Translations under genes and position numbers: made by a program
Shown: positions 3,650 through 37,070 of the stretch, one piece after another
Layout of the letters: the number at the start of each line of letters is the position of its first letter
Position numbering within the stretch: position 1 is the first letter of the stretch
Source of the DNA: a virus
DNA length: 64,000 nt
Direction: 5' to 3' (one strand)
Virus record (IMG/VR): IMGVR_UViG_3300032722_000006
Coordinates: 81,284-145,283 of that record
The notes under the pieces: generated by a model
Databases searched by the model: none
The model's input: only the letters and a program-made list of their open reading frames with translations
What the model was told of the DNA's origin: nothing

Positions 3650-3684
3650 ATGATGGGACGTAACCACCACGCCCCCACCACATT

Positions 3685-3756
3685 CTCGCTTTCACCTTCA
3701 ACGTTGGTGTACGTTTTCCGCATATTCAATTTGCGAATCAGACGGTTACTCGCTCG
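3685..3756 (-). ncRNA. AGUA/GAA-clamp RNA, copy B
   Basis: GCg-AGTAACC..two hairpins..AGGTGAAA-GC; short outer stem. Confidence 0.5.
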
Positions 3757-3934: not shown

Positions 3935-4007
3935 TGCCCCCGGAAGGAATTGCACCTTCGACATCCGGTTTCGAAGACCGGCGTTCTTTCTGCTGAACTA
4001 CGGGGGC
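3935..4007 (-). tRNA. tRNA-Arg(UCG)
   Basis: CCGGT-CTTCGAA-ACCGG. Confidence 0.9.
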
Positions 4008-4008
4008 G

Positions 4009-4356
4009 TGGGTGGTACGTAAGCGGGATTTTGTCTAGGATGATCATTCCTCTGTGATGTGTGTCACCACACATCTATAGCAACAACCCGCATGCTCGGG
4101 CGAACAGCCCTCAAACGCACACTGTTTGTCTTGCTCCGGGAGGGACCCCTTACCGTCTGCATTGCTGCATTCGTGGTGGGCTCTTACTCCACCGTTTCAC
4201 CATCACCTGATCCTCTTTTGTGAGGCCATCGGCTGTCTTTTCTCTGTTGAGTCTTCCGTCACCTTGCGATGCCCAGTCGTTAGCTGGTTCCCTGTTCTAT
4301 GGAGTCCCGACTTTCCTCTGCGCGTATAGTACGCAGCGATCATCTTTCTCCACCCC
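4009..4356 (-). ncRNA. rnpB: RNase P RNA (bacterial type A-like)
   Basis: GAGGAAAGTCGGGACT (CR-I), ACAGAGA, GGTGAAACGG..GTAAGAGC, GAGCAAG, ACAAAATCCCGCTTA (CR-V); about 350 nt. Confidence 0.92.
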
Positions 4357-4358
4357 TG

Positions 4359-5142: not shown

Positions 5143-5222
5143 ATTGGAGGAGGGAATCTGGTCGCCTCCCTCCGAGGGCGTTTTATGCTGATCGTCAGCA
5201 ATTTCTTGCCTCCCAGGCCAGG

Positions 5223-5305
5223 TGCTATCGAGGGGAGTTGCACCCCTACGCCCTTTTGGGCACAACGTTCTCACCGTTGCGTGACTGCTGTTCCACCACG
5301 ATAGC
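5223..5305 (-). tRNA. tRNA-Leu(GAG), second copy
   Basis: CAACG-GTGAGAA-CGTTG. Confidence 0.85.
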
Positions 5306-5317
5306 GTGTGATGTCTG

Positions 5318-5392
5318 TGACCCCAACGGGATTCGAACCCGTGTTCCCTGCTTGAAAGGCAGGTCGCCTAGGCCTCTAGCATTGATGGGGCC
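5318..5392 (-). tRNA. tRNA-Glu(UUC)
   Basis: CCTGC-CTTTCAA-GCAGG. Confidence 0.9.
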
Positions 5393-5519
5393 ATTTTCCA
5401 CCTGCTACTGCTCAGCTTTTTTCGGCCTGCCGTAGCTTTCCGGGTGATGGAAACCGTTGATTTGGTGACAATGCGAAGTTCGTTTTCCGTTCAAATTCGG
5501 TGTCCTTTCGCATTGTCGG

Positions 5520-5594
5520 GGTGACTGACGGGATTCGAACCCGCGAATATCCGATTCACAGTCGGACGCCTTAGGCCTCTTGGCTACAGCCACC
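5520..5594 (-). tRNA. tRNA-His(GUG)
   Basis: TCCGA-CTGTGAA-TCGGA; G-1:C73. Confidence 0.92.
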
Positions 5595-5602
5595 ATGAAA
5601 CA

Positions 5603-5701
5603 CTACTTCTTCTTGTTCTTCTTTTCGAACTGATCCTTGTAGACGTACATTGCAACGACAACGATGACGACGGCTGCAGCAATCTTGAGTTTGTTGTTCA
5701 T
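5603..5701 (-). CDS. small membrane peptide
   Basis: GTGTAC-N18-TATGTT-N6-ATG; MNNKLKIAAAVIVVVAMYVYK... Confidence 0.6.
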   Translation of the reverse strand: MNNKLKIAAAVVIVVVAMYVYKDQFEKKNKKK

Positions 5702-5742
5702 ATAGAGAACATACCACACCGGCTGGTGTTAGTACACTCAGG

Positions 5743-5814
5743 AGCTGACGAAGGGATTCGAACCCTCACACGGGACTTTACAGGAGTCCAACCCGACCGT
5801 TGGGCGACATCAGC
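5743..5814 (-). tRNA. tRNA-Thr(UGU), C33
   Basis: GGACT-CCTGTAA-AGTCC; GCTGA acceptor. Confidence 0.8.
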
Positions 5815-5908
5815 ACGTACCTTTCACTTTCGCTCAGGACTTGAACCTGATCTTAGGCTTGGACAGCCCCGTGCAACCGTTACACTAGCCTCAAGAGTTA
5901 CTCAGTCG
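5815..5908 (-). ncRNA. AGUA/GAA-clamp RNA, copy C, enclosing a degenerate Gly(UCC)-like tRNA body
   Basis: ACTg-AGTAACT...D-arm, anticodon arm, TCAGGTTCAAGTCCTGA...AGTGAAA-GGT. Confidence 0.65.
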
Positions 5909-5987
5909 TGGTCCCAGAGGGATTCGAACCCTCACGCATTCGCAGCGATTTTTAAGATCGCCGTGTCTACCGTTCCACCATGAGACC
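5909..5987 (-). tRNA. tRNA-Leu(UAA)
   Basis: GCGAT-CTTAAAA-ATCGC. Confidence 0.88.
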
Positions 5988-5992
5988 AGGTT

Positions 5993-6110
5993 CATCTCTT
6001 TCACCTGCATTCGATGGGACTCGAACCCATAAGCCTCGTCAGAGGCGCCAGCCTTTTTGTCGGCCCGCGTATGCCATTTCCGCCACGAATATTGATGGTT
6101 ACTTGAAACG
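5993..6110 (-). ncRNA. AGUA/GAA-clamp RNA, copy D, enclosing a degenerate Leu-type tRNA (6006-6091)
   Basis: CGTTTCa-AGTAACC..[tRNA-Leu-like, 8-nt loop GACAAAAA]..AGGTGAAA-GAGATG. Confidence 0.7.
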
Positions 6111-6111
6111 G

Positions 6112-6184
6112 AGCGGATGACGGGATTCGAACCCGTGTGTCCAGAGTGGCGCTCTGGTGCCTGAAACCTCTCGGCCACACCCGC
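6112..6184 (-). tRNA. tRNA-Gly(GCC), C33
   Basis: CCAGA-GCGCCAC-TCTGG; U73. Confidence 0.88.
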
Positions 6185-6185
6185 A

Positions 6186-6261
6186 TGGAGCTGACGATGG
6201 GACTCGAACCCATGTGTTCCTCTTTACCGAAGAGGGGCGCCTGCCTCTGCGCTACGTCAGC
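6186..6261 (-). tRNA. tRNA-Thr(GGU), C33, CCA encoded
   Basis: CCTCT-TCGGTAA-AGAGG. Confidence 0.9.
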
Positions 6262-6263
6262 GT

Positions 6264-6373
6264 TGAGTCGAGAGAGGGAGTCGGACCCACATGCCCTTCA
6301 GATGCCTACGACATCGTCCGGGCGGCCCGTGTTGGAACACGTGCTGTGCCTGCCGGTTACACCACTGAGGATC
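6264..6373 (-). pseudogene. degenerate tRNA-like sequence
   Basis: D-arm-like GGTGTAACCGGCAGGCAC and T-arm-like GGGTCCGACTCCC with expanded middle. Confidence 0.4.
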
Positions 6374-6391
6374 GTGCCTCAGGCCATGCGT

Positions 6392-7135
6392 TTACTGGGT
6401 CGGAGTCGAGAGTCGGACTTGAACCGACATACAGCTGTTTTGCAGACAGCTCGCTGAATCATTCGCGTACCTCGACGTAAATTGTGCAATTCTTTCTTGA
6501 AGTTGATCAATCGTGATCAATGATTTTGCATTCTTTCGTTGATTCTCTGTGTGACGAACTAGACGACAATTAGCAGGATGTGCTATCAACGTTGGATCGA
6601 TCCCGAATTTGAAACCATCAGCGATCGAAATCAGGTGATCACGTGACACTCCGTTCAAATTTCCTCCTCTGTTAGAGGCTGAATACCACCCGTATTGTTT
6701 AAGCAGATCAAGATCGAAATGCTCTGGGTAGTCATACACGTTGAACGTAAAGAGGCACAAGTACTTGTAACTCTCGCGTGAACTCCGTTGTTCGGCATGA
6801 AATCCCTTGTAGCACTCTACGTTACAAAATCGATGCTTTTGACGTCCTCGACGGCCGTACACACGATTGGGTTTCCCACACAAGTCACACTTGAAATCAT
6901 GTCCGGTAAGCGATCTACCAACGCCCATACCCTTCCTAGGAGAAGGTCGACCCTTCATTGTTTGTCGCGTTTTTTCCCTTGATTCTGCGCTTTGATGACG
7001 ATGATGTGATGCGCAACTCTGTGTGCAGTGTTTGCGTCTCTTTGGAGATTTGAACTGCTTCTCAGTGAGAAGCAGTTCAAACGAACTACCGCATGGACAG
7101 ATGAACGCGTATGACTTACGTGATACCTGATACAC
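6392..7135 (-). CDS. HNH-like homing endonuclease (NUMOD/Zn-finger N-terminus)
   Basis: CPCG, HCTQSC, FCNVEC, SRDHLIS...HPANC...N.RK; reads through tRNA-Cys. Confidence 0.75.
   Translation of the reverse strand: MYQVSRKSYAFICPCGSSFELLLTEKQFKSPKRRKHCTQSCASHHRHQSAESREKTRQTMKGRPSPRKGMGVGRSLTGHDFKCDLCGKPNRVYGRRGRQKHRFCNVECYKGFHAEQRSSRESYKYLCLFTFNVYDYPEHFDLDLLKQYGWYSASNRGGNLNGVSRDHLISIADGFKFGIDPTLIAHPANCRLVRHTENQRKNAKSLITIDQLQERIAQFTSRYANDSASCLQNSCMSVQVRLSTPTQ
6404..6476 (-). tRNA. tRNA-Cys(GCA)
   Basis: GCTGT-CTGCAAA-ACAGC; U73. Confidence 0.9.
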
Positions 7136-12664: not shown

Positions 12665-13533
12665 CCGCCTTTATTCTCGTAGAGGGAAGTCTGGACATGC
12701 TTACGGAACAGATCTGACGTCCTCTTCCCGATCGCCTTTCGCGCGTCCTTCGAGTCGACGATCTCACCTGCACCTTCACGGGTGACGTCCTCGACCATCG
12801 CGACGATGACATCCTTCATGCGATCGAGACCGATCCCGGGATCGAGCTTGTCGAGGACGTGCTGCAACCGCGTAGGTGTGACCCACTCGTTCGCGATATC
12901 ATCAGCAGCCTCGAGCACCGCTAGCTTCGCAGGGTCGCCGACCTCGCGAGGCTTCGCTGTCTCACGTTCTTCGGCGCGCTTGTGCTTGCAGATGACGCGA
13001 GACCCGTCGTTCGTCTTGAATTCCTTCACTGGACGCAGTACGACCCCTTCACGGGGTTGATCGCCTTCGATCCCCCTGCGCTTTGCGACGATGGACGGTG
13101 CATCACGCTCAGCGTCGATCGCCTCGAACGTGGACGGGATGCGCTTGTACGGGACGAACTCGAGACCCATGCGCTCGACAATCTGACATGCGTTGTCCTG
13201 GTCGAGCCAGCAGTCGCCCACCTTGACCTCGAACGCAATGAAACACAGCGTCTTTCCGTAGCGCCACGACTGTCCTTGCTGCTTTCCGCCGTACGCCTCA
13301 CCAAAGATCACGATCTCAGGATGACCGATCGCCTCGAAGCCAGCCTTGAGCGCATCAACGTCAAAGATCTTGACGAAGTTATCGTGTTTCTCACCGCCGG
13401 CGAAAAGGTGCACGGTGCCCTCCTTCCACGAGATGTGCGCGGACGTGCCGTGCACCTTCTCAGAAGCAAAGAGTTCCTTGAAAAGGAGGAAGTCTTGTTC
13501 CTTGTATGCGTTCGCAATGTGCATGTATCCCAT
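12661..13533 (-). CDS. RNA ligase, Rnl2-like
   Basis: EKVHGT (motif I), FGEAYG, FIAFEV, EGVVLRP, ICK. Confidence 0.85.
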   Translation of the reverse strand: MGYMHIANAYKEQDFLLFKELFASEKVHGTSAHISWKEGTVHLFAGGEKHDNFVKIFDVDALKAGFEAIGHPEIVIFGEAYGGKQQGQSWRYGKTLCFIAFEVKVGDCWLDQDNACQIVERMGLEFVPYKRIPSTFEAIDAERDAPSIVAKRRGIEGDQPREGVVLRPVKEFKTNDGSRVICKHKRAEERETAKPREVGDPAKLAVLEAADDIANEWVTPTRLQHVLDKLDPGIGLDRMKDVIVAMVEDVTREGAGEIVDSKDARKAIGKRTSDLFRKHVQTSLYENKGG

Positions 13534-16054: not shown

Positions 16055-16906
16055 TCACGGGATGTCTTTACACCCGCGTGTACCCGTCTCATACCACGCG
16101 AATCCCTCATAGTGAGCGACAGTCATCGGTCGGGCTCGACCCCGAACCCCTTGGATGTGGCCGCCCTTGAGGCCTGAGTGGTACGGACGTCCGCTCTCGT
16201 TGACGACCCATTCGTCGATATTTCCAACCTGATCGTGCACGCCAAATGGACTGACACACGTGTCACGTGTCCCAGACGGCTCAAGAAGGTTGTCGAGCGC
16301 TTTCGCCTCAGGCCCATCAGATGTCGTCGCCTTGAATACGTCCAGGCCCCGGGGCAGGAAATTGTCAGTGTTGCAAGCGTTCCTGTTGCGATGGTAACCG
16401 TCGCCGTACGGGTACGGATGCATGTCAGGACCTTCGGCGGCGAACGTCCATTCGCTGTCAGTGCACAGACGCTTTCCGATCGCCTCGAGCTCACGCTTAG
16501 CGTCGTACCACGTCATCCACGACCTCGGACGGGTACCCAAAGTGTTAGGAAATTCAAAGCGATCAATGCAGAAATGTTTGTGCAACGTGTGCTCTGACAA
16601 ACACCGAGTTGGGAACTTGAATTCTCCGCATCGACCAACTTCGGGACCCATCTGATCCGGATCTTCTGTGGGTTCTCCTTTGATGTCGACCCAACGCAGG
16701 CACACCTCTTCAACCTGCGGGCAATACTCACTGTCTACCTCTACCATGTCATCCGGGCACACAGACCGACCCACGTATTCATTGACAGGCACGGATGGTG
16801 TATCTACGGTCGCTGCAACACGCAAATTTTCAATCGGTTGGGCACCAAATCCTGGTAGCGCGACACCCGCACAGACAAAAGCCCCGACGATTACAACTCT
16901 TTTCAT
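16055..16906 (-). CDS. FGE-sulfatase (SUMF1/EgtB/PvdO) domain protein, secreted
   Basis: FCIDRFEFP, GKRLCT.SEW..A, PYPYG, SPFGVHD.VGN..EW. Confidence 0.88.
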   Translation of the reverse strand: MKRVVIVGAFVCAGVALPGFGAQPIENLRVAATVDTPSVPVNEYVGRSVCPDDMVEVDSEYCPQVEEVCLRWVDIKGEPTEDPDQMGPEVGRCGEFKFPTRCLSEHTLHKHFCIDRFEFPNTLGTRPRSWMTWYDAKRELEAIGKRLCTDSEWTFAAEGPDMHPYPYGDGYHRNRNACNTDNFLPRGLDVFKATTSDGPEAKALDNLLEPSGTRDTCVSPFGVHDQVGNIDEWVVNESGRPYHSGLKGGHIQGVRGRARPMTVAHYEGFAWYETGTRGCKDIP

Positions 16907-16909
16907 CTG

Positions 16910-17224
16910 TTATTCTTCACCTTCGTAACACCGGTCGCACCAGTCACCGCTCCAACAGAGGTGTACGAATCCCAGATCAAAACTGTCGTGGGGCCCATCG
17001 TAGTAACAGTGGTGACGTCCAAGCGACCAATATTTTGTGAACGTAATCAAGTAGTAACTCGACTTCATAAAGTGCCACTCGAGCGTCTTCGCATCCTGGT
17101 ACTGCTGTGACCAGCCCAGACCAAAGAGTTCAGTGTGAAACACCCAACGCCAACCAAGGATGCTGGGTCGAGCGATACCGTCCGGACTGACGTTTCTGTC
17201 AGGCTTTGTGGCAAAGAAAATCAT
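16910..17224 (-). CDS. hypothetical protein
   Basis: coupled ORF. Confidence 0.6.
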   Translation of the reverse strand: MIFFATKPDRNVSPDGIARPSILGWRWVFHTELFGLGWSQQYQDAKTLEWHFMKSSYYLITFTKYWSLGRHHCYYDGPHDSFDLGFVHLCWSGDWCDRCYEGEE

Positions 17225-28310: not shown

Positions 28311-28333
28311 GCTAGATAGTACCCCACCCGTTG

Positions 28334-28403
28334 AGCCCAAGGTTGGAGTTGAACCAGCGACCTCCCAGTGGATACCGGGCGCTCTGCACTGAGCTACGTG
28401 GGC
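28334..28403 (-). tRNA. atypical tRNA-like gene (6-nt anticodon loop)
   Basis: CCCGG-TATCCA-CTGGG; D-loop lacks GG. Confidence 0.55.
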
Positions 28404-28405
28404 AG

Positions 28406-28479
28406 TTGCAAAGGAAGGGCTTTAACCTCCGACCTCCGGGCCATTACGCCCGGCGCTCTCTCTCCTGAGCTACTTCGCA
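28406..28479 (-). tRNA. atypical tRNA-like gene (8-nt anticodon loop)
   Basis: CCGGG-CGTAATGG-CCCGG; T-loop TTAAAGC. Confidence 0.55.
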
Positions 28480-28553: not shown

Positions 28554-28560
28554 ATAATCA

Positions 28561-28628
28561 TCGATGATTTCACCTCCGCCGGCAGCTTCAAAGGCTGACA
28601 GTGTCGCTTGCGCTGGTTACTTGATCGA
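28561..28628 (-). ncRNA. AGUA/GAA-clamp RNA, copy E
   Basis: TCGATca-AGTAACC...CAGC-CTTTGAA-GCTG...AGGTGAAA-tcATCGA. Confidence 0.6.
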
Positions 28629-28631
28629 CTG

Positions 28632-29189: not shown

Positions 29190-29210
29190 TGAAGGACTAT
29201 GCCTTCGCGG

Positions 29211-29291
29211 TGCAGGGGGCCGGATTCGAACCGACACAGTACTAAACGGGTGGTTTACAGCCACTTGAGCTCGCCGATGCTCAGCCCCTAC
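29211..29291 (-). tRNA. tRNA-Tyr(GUA)
   Basis: GTGG-CTGTAAA-CCAC, long variable arm. Confidence 0.88.
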
Positions 29292-36611: not shown

Positions 36612-37070
36612 TCAAGGCAACACCCACTTCGCCTGAATAGAAATATTCTCCATCGGGAATTGAGGTTTGATCTCAACTTTCACTGTCATGACGCCGGGAT
36701 CATCACCTGCTTTTGGATCTGATAACACGACACCGTGTCCTTCACCGTCAGACGAGATGATCAACCCTTCGCACACCTCCTTGATAGTTCCCGTCCTTTC
36801 ATCATCAACCTTGACGATGAATAAATCACCGGGTAGTGCATCGACTGGGATGTCAGTCTCATACAATGCCTTATGTCCCTTGTTGTCGACGACGTCAACG
36901 TTGAAGTTCTTAATCGCGTCTTGACTTATCAAGTTCAACAATGATGCATAGATCATTGAATGAAGCTGCTGCACCGAAATGCCTTGTAACGCATTATTGA
37001 CTACCTGACGGATATTGTCCTTGACGAGCTTCGTCAGACGCGCGCGATTAATTTCTGTTTCATAAGACAT
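36612..37070 (-). CDS. hypothetical protein
   Basis: TACGAT-N6-ATG. Confidence 0.6.
   Translation of the reverse strand: MSYETEINRARLTKLVKDNIRQVVNNALQGISVQQLHSMIYASLLNLISQDAIKNFNVDVVDNKGHKALYETDIPVDALPGDLFIVKVDDERTGTIKEVCEGLIISSDGEGHGVVLSDPKAGDDPGVMTVKVEIKPQFPMENISIQAKWVLP

Follow-up and report, generated by a model that had tools for sequence, protein, structure and literature searches.

A conserved tRNA-Leu-like RNA in a loop-E-like clamp, probably a non-decoding tRNA mimic, in the tRNA array of a huge phage

Introduction

What is a tRNA-shaped element doing in the tRNA array of a phage when neither its acceptor end nor its anticodon arm is that of an ordinary tRNA: is it a dying gene, or an RNA with a function of its own? 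The tRNA arrays of phages have come to be regarded as counter-measures to host enzymes that destroy tRNA and, to our knowledge, all known cases of such counter-measures use working tRNAs. If a conserved, tRNA-shaped RNA that neither charges normally nor decodes is indeed maintained within such an array, it would add a second principle to this picture, that of mimicry as opposed to replacement. A sequence-only reading of the locus considered here had proposed that a complete Leu-type tRNA body was captured inside a clamp and repurposed as a structural mimic that cannot be charged. Here, the element is dissected and traced through related phages, and its possible identities are weighed against one another.

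The phage and its tRNA array

The stretch of DNA that was analysed (64,000 nucleotides; hereafter the window) comprises bases 81284-145283 of a 145-kb IMG/VR virus record with a CheckV completeness of 39%. ARAGORN called 52 tRNA genes in the record, 45 of them within the window, on the minus strand for all except one. A type A bacterial RNase P RNA (Rfam, 224 bits) is encoded at window 4004-4357 (-), between tRNA-Leu(CAA) and tRNA-Arg(UCG), and the same RNase P RNA lies within the arrays of G012 and G014, both complete, and of G017. Relatives were defined by their ATP-dependent DNA ligase, which is 56-72% identical to that of the window phage; they include complete genomes of 340 and 369 kb, and the complete relatives carry more than 50 tRNAs each, split over two arrays. 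Taken together, the sizes of the complete relatives, their complement of more than 50 tRNAs and the RNase P RNA mark out a clade of huge phages with near-complete tRNA sets, and the source of the window is a phage of ~350 kb with more than 50 tRNA genes and an RNase P RNA of its own.

The ordinary Leu tRNAs of the window phage, as called by ARAGORN, have the anticodons CAG, UAG, CAA, GAG (two copies) and UAA. With a canonical Leu set already present, the clamped copy described below is not needed for decoding. U33 is missing in 8 of the 42 window tRNAs that have a normal 3-base anticodon, being replaced by C33 in three Thr tRNAs, Gly GCC, Ala GGC, one Met and one Lys, and by A33 in one Lys UUU. 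These substitutions suggest that this region of the anticodon loop is under pressure. A scan for promoters and terminators returned nothing adjoining the element, with counts no higher than the shuffle level.

Anatomy of the element

The whole element measures ~122 nt (6109 to 5988, minus strand) and fills the entire spacer between tRNA-Gly(GCC) and tRNA-Leu(UAA), the latter starting from 5987 after a short tail that follows the 3' strand of the outer stem (Table 1). Its core is the Leu-type body, which the sequence-only reading had placed at 6006-6091 and which ARAGORN recovered with one base more, with D arm, variable arm and T arm all normal. Canonical features of tRNA-Leu are present in the form of A14, G18G19, a long variable arm, a T loop of the type UUCRANU and the discriminator A73 (position 6006), and six of the seven acceptor pairs can form. 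The canonical features that the body fails to provide are a 7-bp acceptor with processable free ends, and a 5-bp anticodon stem bearing a 7-nt loop with U33.

Table 1. Parts of the clamped element, in window coordinates
Feature	Position	Strand	Sequence, pairing and remarks
Outer clamp stem, 5' strand	6105-6109	-	GUUUC, directly 3' of tRNA-Gly(GCC); pairs with GAGAU at 5998-5994 (MFE fold)
5' half of loop-E-like (bulged-G type) motif	6100-6104	-	A + AGUA; from the spacer pattern, three-dimensional motif presumed
Inner clamp stem, 5' strand	6097-6099	-	ACC; pairs with GGU at 6005-6003
5' linker	6093-6096	-	AUCA, from clamp to tRNA-like body
tRNA-Leu-like body	6006-6092	-	87 nt, class II (ARAGORN)
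Acceptor	6092-6086 with 6013-6007	-	AUAUUCG with CGAAUGC; five Watson-Crick pairs, U2.G71, A1.C72 mismatch
D arm	6083-6067	-	contains GGCGGAAAUGGCAUACGC; reads GCGG-AAAUGGCAUA-CGC
28-nt block	6047-6074	-	identical in the L016/L024/L029/L059/L060 lineage
Anticodon-like arm	6050-6065	-	GGCC (6065-6062), GACAAAAA (6061-6054), GGCU (6053-6050)
Variable arm	6049-6031	-	19 nt, 5-bp stem
T arm	6030-6014	-	AUGGG-UUCGAGU-CCCAU, canonical
Inner clamp stem, 3' strand, and 3' half of loop-E-like motif	6000-6005	-	GGU + GAA, directly after A73
Outer clamp stem, 3' strand, with flanking bases	5993-5999	-	A + GAGAU (5998-5994) + G (MFE fold)

The anticodon-like arm counts 16 nt against the canonical 17, arranged as a 4-bp stem and an 8-nt loop, with G31.A39. 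In ARAGORN's version, G.A closes the stem as a fifth pair, leaving a 6-nt loop (ACAAAA) and an 'anticodon' of two bases. An 8-nt loop without U33 had been read directly from the letters, and this stands: position 33 is A, and U33 is missing in ARAGORN's drawing too. The call that ARAGORN attaches to these 87 nt is tRNA-???, or 'tRNA-?(Leu|Phe)(aa)'. The model RF00005 did not match 6006-6092, either at its gathering score (29 bits) or at E<=10, a result to be read with the caveat that the ordinary class II tRNAs at 530-613, 5221-5305 and 29209-29291 were likewise missed at the gathering score. In Rfam, neither the window at the gathering score nor positions 5200-6500 at E<=10 gave a family, tRNA and RNase P aside, that accounts for the element, and its MFE z-score of -1.22 is unremarkable.

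The clamp

The acceptor end had been described as running straight into its 3' flank, and it does so, GGUGAAAG occupying 6005-5998 directly after A73. The pairing proposed between AGUAACC and GGUGAAA stands in part: ACC (6099-6097) pairs with GGU (6005-6003), whereas AGUA and GAA can associate only through non-canonical contacts of the loop-E/sarcin-ricin type. The linker and positions 1-2 of the body together form a 6-nt unpaired 5' side that faces a 3' GCA; linkers in relatives range from 2 to 20 nt. The sequence GCAGGUGAA is kept in the window, L029, L103, L101 and L110, and outer stems in relatives consist of other sequence with pairing retained.

The clamp pattern, defined as AGUA within 40 nt of the spacer start and, next to it, a triplet complementary to the triplet that precedes a downstream GAA, was sought in same-strand tRNA spacers of 45-400 nt, drawn from the window and from 40 kb of each complete relative (G012, G014). 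It was present in 20 of the 75 tRNA spacers and in none on the opposite strand, with shuffled spacers giving a mean of 0.7 and a maximum of 3. Regular-expression hits for the clamp number 11 in G014 and nine in G012. Inner-stem pairs covary across clamps, as ACC/GGU (13 cases), ACU/AGU (2), AAC/GUU (2) and ACU/GGU (3). The flank motif of the clamp is real and not a product of chance. Two other uses of the flanking bases were rejected: pairing of CAUC in the 5' linker with GGUG is ruled out by the covarying inner pairs ACC/GGU, ACU/AGU and AAC/GUU, and AGGUGA with AUG is not a Shine-Dalgarno signal, as the L029 group and the other clamps do not retain the start codon.

Four further clamps of the form AGUA-ACY...RGU-GAA, with unrelated interiors, occur in the window at 438-529, 3650-3755, 5815-5907 and 28554-28630 (all -). 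That at 5815-5907, in the slot from Leu(UAA) to Thr(UGU), holds a Gly-like anticodon arm with a base other than U at position 33. The same Gly-like clamp is found at G014 12676-12759, at G012 16900-16983 within L118, and at L094 15739-15822 in the slot from Gly(GCC) to Thr(UGU). Loops of these Gly-like clamps read UGUCCAA, CGUCCAA and CAGCCAA, and the L029 group has a Thr-like CUUGUAA there instead. At L094 17072-17159, a clamp surrounds an ARAGORN tRNA-Val(UAC) in which the A1.C72 mismatch and the ...UGCAGGUGAA end are as in the Leu-like element.

Homologues in related phages

Several routes to homologues returned little. An exact-word search with the anticodon arm, which is biased to lineages with a conserved arm, recovered a single related lineage (L016, L024, L029), of which two metagenome contigs hold identical copies, and a 16-mer of the arm occurred at 39 places in viral contigs, of which 36 were unrelated hairpins. 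Scanning metagenomes with a 19-mer returned copies identical to the L029 group, unrelated places and nothing else, and a gapped flank-motif pattern gave eight new places, all of them chance matches in unrelated sequence. Single neighbouring proteins (a 247-aa HNH-like ORF and a 270-aa ORF) led to no relatives; megablast against the nearest phage records yielded only a 39-base tRNA match. The Leu D-arm word occurs at more than 120 places in bacterial genomes from many phyla; it is the generic tRNA-Leu D arm and carries no clue to the host.

A search unbiased by the odd loop was therefore provided by the ligase-defined relatives, which required a two-sequence ligase alignment and whose whole records were scanned for a Leu D-arm pattern; a search with the clamp pattern was added in the two complete genomes. 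Clamped Leu-like homologues are present in at least eight related phage lineages, every one of them between AGUAACY and RGUGAA. They comprise L103 (G007), L101 (G014), L110, which is the L094 place (G023), L104, which is the L097 place (G024), L115 (G017), L102 (G011), the Cys-to-Thr(GGU) spacer of G012 and probably L106 (G016). Conservation of the flanks had been put forward as a test of the mimic reading, and the flank motifs are kept in these homologues, which were found independently of the anticodon arm.

The usual slot of the element in relatives is between tRNA-Cys and tRNA-Thr(GGU), a slot that holds a Leu-like clamped element in G014, G012, L029, L094 and L097, and the window has its element two genes beyond it. 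In the window itself, the Cys-to-Thr(GGU) spacer (6262-6401 (-), 140 nt) contains no clamp, and occupation of this slot in relatives together with its clampless state in the window indicates that the modules have been rearranged. To speak of a 'captured' body, as had been done, is misleading, since throughout the clade the Leu-like body sits in the same clamp. The family goes back to a tRNA-Leu(YAA) gene that was already in this clamp before the clade radiated.

Conservation and covariation

Because MAFFT alignments of the elements were structurally incorrect, six 'open' homologues were instead split by short motifs and their pairs counted by script. In the acceptor-like helix, only pairs 3-7/66-70 are kept in the six lineages; 29 of 30 cells are canonical, with two to four pair types per position, and among the 720 permutations of the 3' strands the true assignment alone reaches its score. 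The anticodon stem is canonical in 24 of 24 cells, with three of its four positions varying (4/720 permutations), and the T stem in 30 of 30 (6/720 permutations). The stems are maintained by compensatory change, and the 3' half of the anticodon-like loop is maintained in sequence.

The loop GACAAAAA, with G31.A39, occurs unchanged in three lineages (the window, the L029 group and L103), and the stems beneath it read GGCC/GGCU in the window and in the identical L029 arm, as against UCCG/CGGA in L103. The 28-nt block listed in Table 1 spans the D arm from G19 to its 3' end together with the entire odd anticodon arm; no exact match between the window array (9.6 kb) and the L016 array (7.8 kb) is longer, and the orthologous ordinary tRNAs of these two arrays are 56-72% identical, the ligases of their phages 70%. 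The ligase tree is a star-like polytomy in which the lineages that bear GACAAAAA are resolved neither as a clade nor as independent, and the shared block may have spread between lineages by recombination.

Conservation of elbow versus anticodon had been suggested as a check, and here the outcome is mixed. The elbow is conserved in most lineages, D-loop GG and T-loop UUCGAGU being retained in seven of eight, but not in the L029 group. On the anticodon side, loop positions 34-38 are kept everywhere, as YAAAA or YAAAC throughout and as in real tRNA-Leu(UAA/CAA), whereas positions 32-33 and the length of the loop vary: UUUAAAC in L104, CUCAAAC in G012, CCUAAAA in L110, the 7-nt CACAAAA in L101 (that is, G014), GACAAAAA in three lineages and the 10-nt UCUAAAAAAA in L115.

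The acceptor end

A canonical acceptor end is found in no member of the family. The 3' trinucleotide GCA before GGU is kept, and in L029, L103 and L101 positions 1-2 never complement G71 C72. In L115, L102, L106 and G012 there is no acceptor 3' strand, the T arm being followed by GCA or GUA and then by the clamp; in L115 and L102 the 'acceptor' is a closed hairpin, in which a run further upstream (CCCGGG...CCYGGG) serves as pairing partner of the strand preceding U8. That such hairpin variants might be permuted tRNAs from which a working tRNA is made was ruled out, L115 having a 10-nt loop. Other defects are particular to single lineages: the L029 group is without D-loop GG, a long variable arm and a 7-nt T loop (its T loop has 8 nt, and there are five acceptor pairs only), and L104 has lost some acceptor pairs. 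The MFE fold of L101 consists of the clamp and a full cloverleaf. L110 and L104 have 7-nt loops with the anticodon UAA, and ARAGORN calls L110 a tRNA-Leu(UAA), one whose 8-bp acceptor includes A.G and whose position 33 is C; the ancestor of the family may therefore have been a decoder, as perhaps some members still are.

The absence of a free NCCA end had been offered as an argument that the RNA cannot be charged. This argument fails, as only six of the 45 window tRNAs encode CCA and 39 do without; most tRNA 3' ends in this array continue into other sequence, and such a continuation carries no evidence on chargeability. Across the family, a chargeable acceptor end is maintained nowhere, and is impossible in at least four lineages; the window copy, with A73 and six of seven acceptor pairs, may itself be chargeable.

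Comparison with known systems

YrlA Y RNAs, encoded by bacteria and phages, are non-coding RNAs closed by a stem of their paired ends, and contain a non-decoding tRNA-mimic domain (Chen et al. 2014, PMC4201824); they adjoin a Ro60/TROVE gene and bear the 5' motif GNCGAAN0-1G (PMC4201824). They are the nearest analogue: like the element, they have a tRNA-like domain, with D and T arms and an acceptor-like helix, and a stem in which the 5' and 3' ends pair. In contrast to YrlA, the closing stem of the element carries AGUA/GAA and leaves from the acceptor end, and a full anticodon-like arm is kept. TROVE (PF05731) was not found in G000, G012 (99% complete), G014 (100% complete), G004 or G001. By eye, GNCGAAN0-1G was not seen in the element, whose 5' region reads GUUUCAAGUAACCAUCA and whose only CGAA lies in the 3' acceptor strand and is preceded by A-U, and no Y RNA family figured among the Rfam matches at E<=10 over 5200-6500. 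With no TROVE gene, no such motif seen and no Y RNA match, the element fails the defining features of YrlA.

Phage tRNAs have been reported to escape anticodon nucleases through changes in the loop (van den Berg et al. 2023, PMC10264068), and to neutralise the effectors of PARIS (PMC11464382) and of retron Ec78 (PMC11555353). The element shares with them a setting in tRNA arrays, altered anticodon-loop positions and the logic of anti-defence. However, anti-defence phage tRNAs are working molecules that replace cleaved host tRNAs, whereas the arm of the element is shortened and a canonical acceptor end is missing; unlike a replacement tRNA, the element could therefore serve solely as a mimic or decoy. 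The words 'decoy' and 'pseudo' are absent from the main text of PMC10264068.

Identity with a frameshift-suppressor tRNA was ruled out, the arm of the element being shorter and not longer. Suppressors of the sufD and sufB2 types carry their 8-nt loop on an 18-nt arm with a full 5-bp stem, and retain U33 and an ordinary acceptor; the arm of the element can likewise be folded with an 8-nt loop, but its stem has 4 bp (a 16-nt arm), position 33 is A and the acceptor is defective. The sarcin-ricin/loop E (bulged-G) motif has the consensus AGUA/GAA, with examples in rRNA, T-box leaders, viroids and riboswitches, and we know of no case in which it closes the spacers of a tRNA array. The clamp agrees with this motif in sequence and in its sarcin-ricin orientation (AGUA-helix-GAA) only, and the flanking Watson-Crick pairs covary. 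In the tRNA cluster of phage T4, 'species 1 and 2' are small stable RNAs of unknown function that are co-transcribed and processed with the tRNAs; they set a precedent only for non-tRNA products of phage tRNA clusters.

What the element may be

An element whose acceptor and anticodon arm are non-canonical, and which is nevertheless conserved in related phages, points to a tRNA mimic with its own job and not to a dead gene, and we consider it probable, though well short of certain, that the element is a selected, non-decoding tRNA mimic. The earlier proposal of a repurposed mimic in place of a decaying pseudogene is thereby largely supported: kept flanks, covarying stems and the odd loop argue that the body is not decaying freely. 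The parts that are kept (the elbow, the stacked helices and an anticodon-like loop with an altered 5' side) are those that a tRNA-binding enzyme sees. Several observations weigh on the other side. Lineages have lost different tRNA features, a pattern also expected from relaxed constraint; L110 and L104 retain 7-nt loops with the anticodon UAA, one of them being called tRNA-Leu by ARAGORN; the MFE z-score, at -1.22, is unremarkable; and the ligase tree shows the GACAAAAA lineages neither as a clade nor as independent.

Were constraint on the body relaxed, selection would act on the clamp as a spacer module, and the Leu-like body would be a dying tRNA-Leu copy that survives inside it, made redundant by the neighbouring tRNA-Leu(UAA). 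This we hold to be rather unlikely. The defect does differ lineage by lineage, clamps do hold unrelated cargo, some of it not tRNA-like, and a canonical Leu(UAA) gene does lie next door in both the window and L029, but all three tested stems covary, three lineages carry an identical 8-nt loop on stems that covary, no word common to both arrays is longer than the 28-nt block, and D-loop GG and T-loop UUCGAGU have been kept in all but one of eight lineages. An element that works solely in cis is also unlikely. Its fold and clamp would recruit RNase P (with the phage's RNA or the host's) or 3'-processing enzymes, and would so order or punctuate the maturation of a polycistronic array, with no role in trans. 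RNase P recognises the tRNA elbow and the acceptor/T stack, and it is the elbow and this stack that are the best-kept parts of the element; the presence of an RNase P RNA inside the array of this phage and of its complete relatives, and the filling of a whole spacer between two tRNAs, fit such a role too. Yet real tRNAs only 17-18 nt off on either side already supply cleavage sites, a normal RNase P site is missing from those variants that lack an acceptor 3' strand, and processing leaves the sequence conservation of the anticodon-like loop unexplained.

Very improbable, in our judgement, is a working tRNA of unusual decoding, with normal ends, CCA added, charging by LeuRS and an 8-nt loop that reads, for example, a quadruplet or frameshift-prone site of the UUG/UUU type. 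LeuRS does not read the anticodon, as is established for E. coli, and A73, A14 and G18G19 are all present, with six of seven acceptor pairs possible and the variable and T arms intact; encoded CCA is missing from most tRNAs of the array too, and the odd loop is conserved. These points are set against an arm that is shortened to 16 nt and not expanded to 18, the missing U33, positions 1-2 that are unpaired in L103, L101 and L029, the want of any RF00005 match and, in L029, a homologue with the same loop that has no D-loop GG, an 8-nt T loop and five acceptor pairs.

On the favoured reading of a selected mimic, the element would be transcribed together with the tRNA array, and processing of the 3' end of tRNA-Gly(GCC) and the 5' end of tRNA-Leu(UAA) would release an RNA of ~120 nt. 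Its predicted ends would be held, and so protected, by the outer stem, the AGUA/GAA loop-E-like motif and the 3-bp inner stem. Such an RNA should retain a tRNA-like L-shape through its D arm, T arm and 5-bp acceptor-like helix, with CAAAA shown in the anticodon-like loop. With an anticodon arm that is short by one base and lacks U33, it would be unable to decode normally and would itself stay out of translation. It may act in trans, by occupying a factor that binds tRNA-Leu(UAA/CAA), the likeliest candidates being a host defence nuclease that targets tRNA or an enzyme that modifies or processes tRNA. The leading guess on function, and a tentative one, is that the element is a decoy or inhibitor of a host defence tRNA nuclease; we know of no bacterial nuclease with demonstrated specificity for tRNA-Leu(UAA/CAA). 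Broader, and no less tentative, is the suggestion that each genome encodes some 10 loop-E-clamped, tRNA-shaped RNAs, unchargeable and uncleavable, as decoys or inhibitors of host tRNA-targeting defence nucleases. In that speculative set, each RNA might show the anticodon loop of one tRNA with positions 32-33 altered (CAA for the Leu-like element, UCC for the adjoining Gly-like one), and, if this is true, RNA-based counter-defence would exist beside replacement tRNAs. A conserved mimic of this kind would also provide a defined RNA of ~120 nt as a testable bait for its partner. Calls of 'tRNA-???' or pseudo-tRNA in the arrays of huge phages can conceal selected RNAs, and the AGUA/GAA clamp is a simple signature by which to find them.

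Other unusual tRNA genes

Departures from the ordinary are not confined to the clamped element. The tRNA-Leu(UAA) beside it (window 5908-5987 (-)) is only 80 nt long, with a much shortened variable arm, the Leu(UAA) of G012 has 75 nt, and in L111 (G017) a Leu(UAG) combines C33 with a short variable arm. At window 5320-5390 (-), Rfam detects a tRNA (36.5 bits) with anticodon UUC (Glu) and a defective acceptor stem that ARAGORN did not call. Further tRNA-like genes with 6-nt or 8-nt anticodon loops lie beside Lys tRNA genes at window 28333-28403 and 28405-28479 (-), and in a relative, L078 1045-1479 holds three such odd-loop genes (tt, ttta, tt), with a clamp after each. Outside the ligase-defined relatives, a 302-kb viral contig has at L006:5344-5470 an identical Leu D arm followed by CACUG-AAAAAGGA-CAGUG, whose 8-nt, A-rich loop is without U33 and after which there is no recognisable T arm; this locus may be an unrelated case of the same kind. 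Finally, the same phage encodes outside the window (G000:C1:76570-76661) a 92-nt class II tRNA which ARAGORN assigns the anticodon UUA, of the ochre suppressor type, and the complete relative G014 has a CUA (amber) tRNA at 36781-36856, which together hint at suppressor tRNAs or at reassignment of stop codons.
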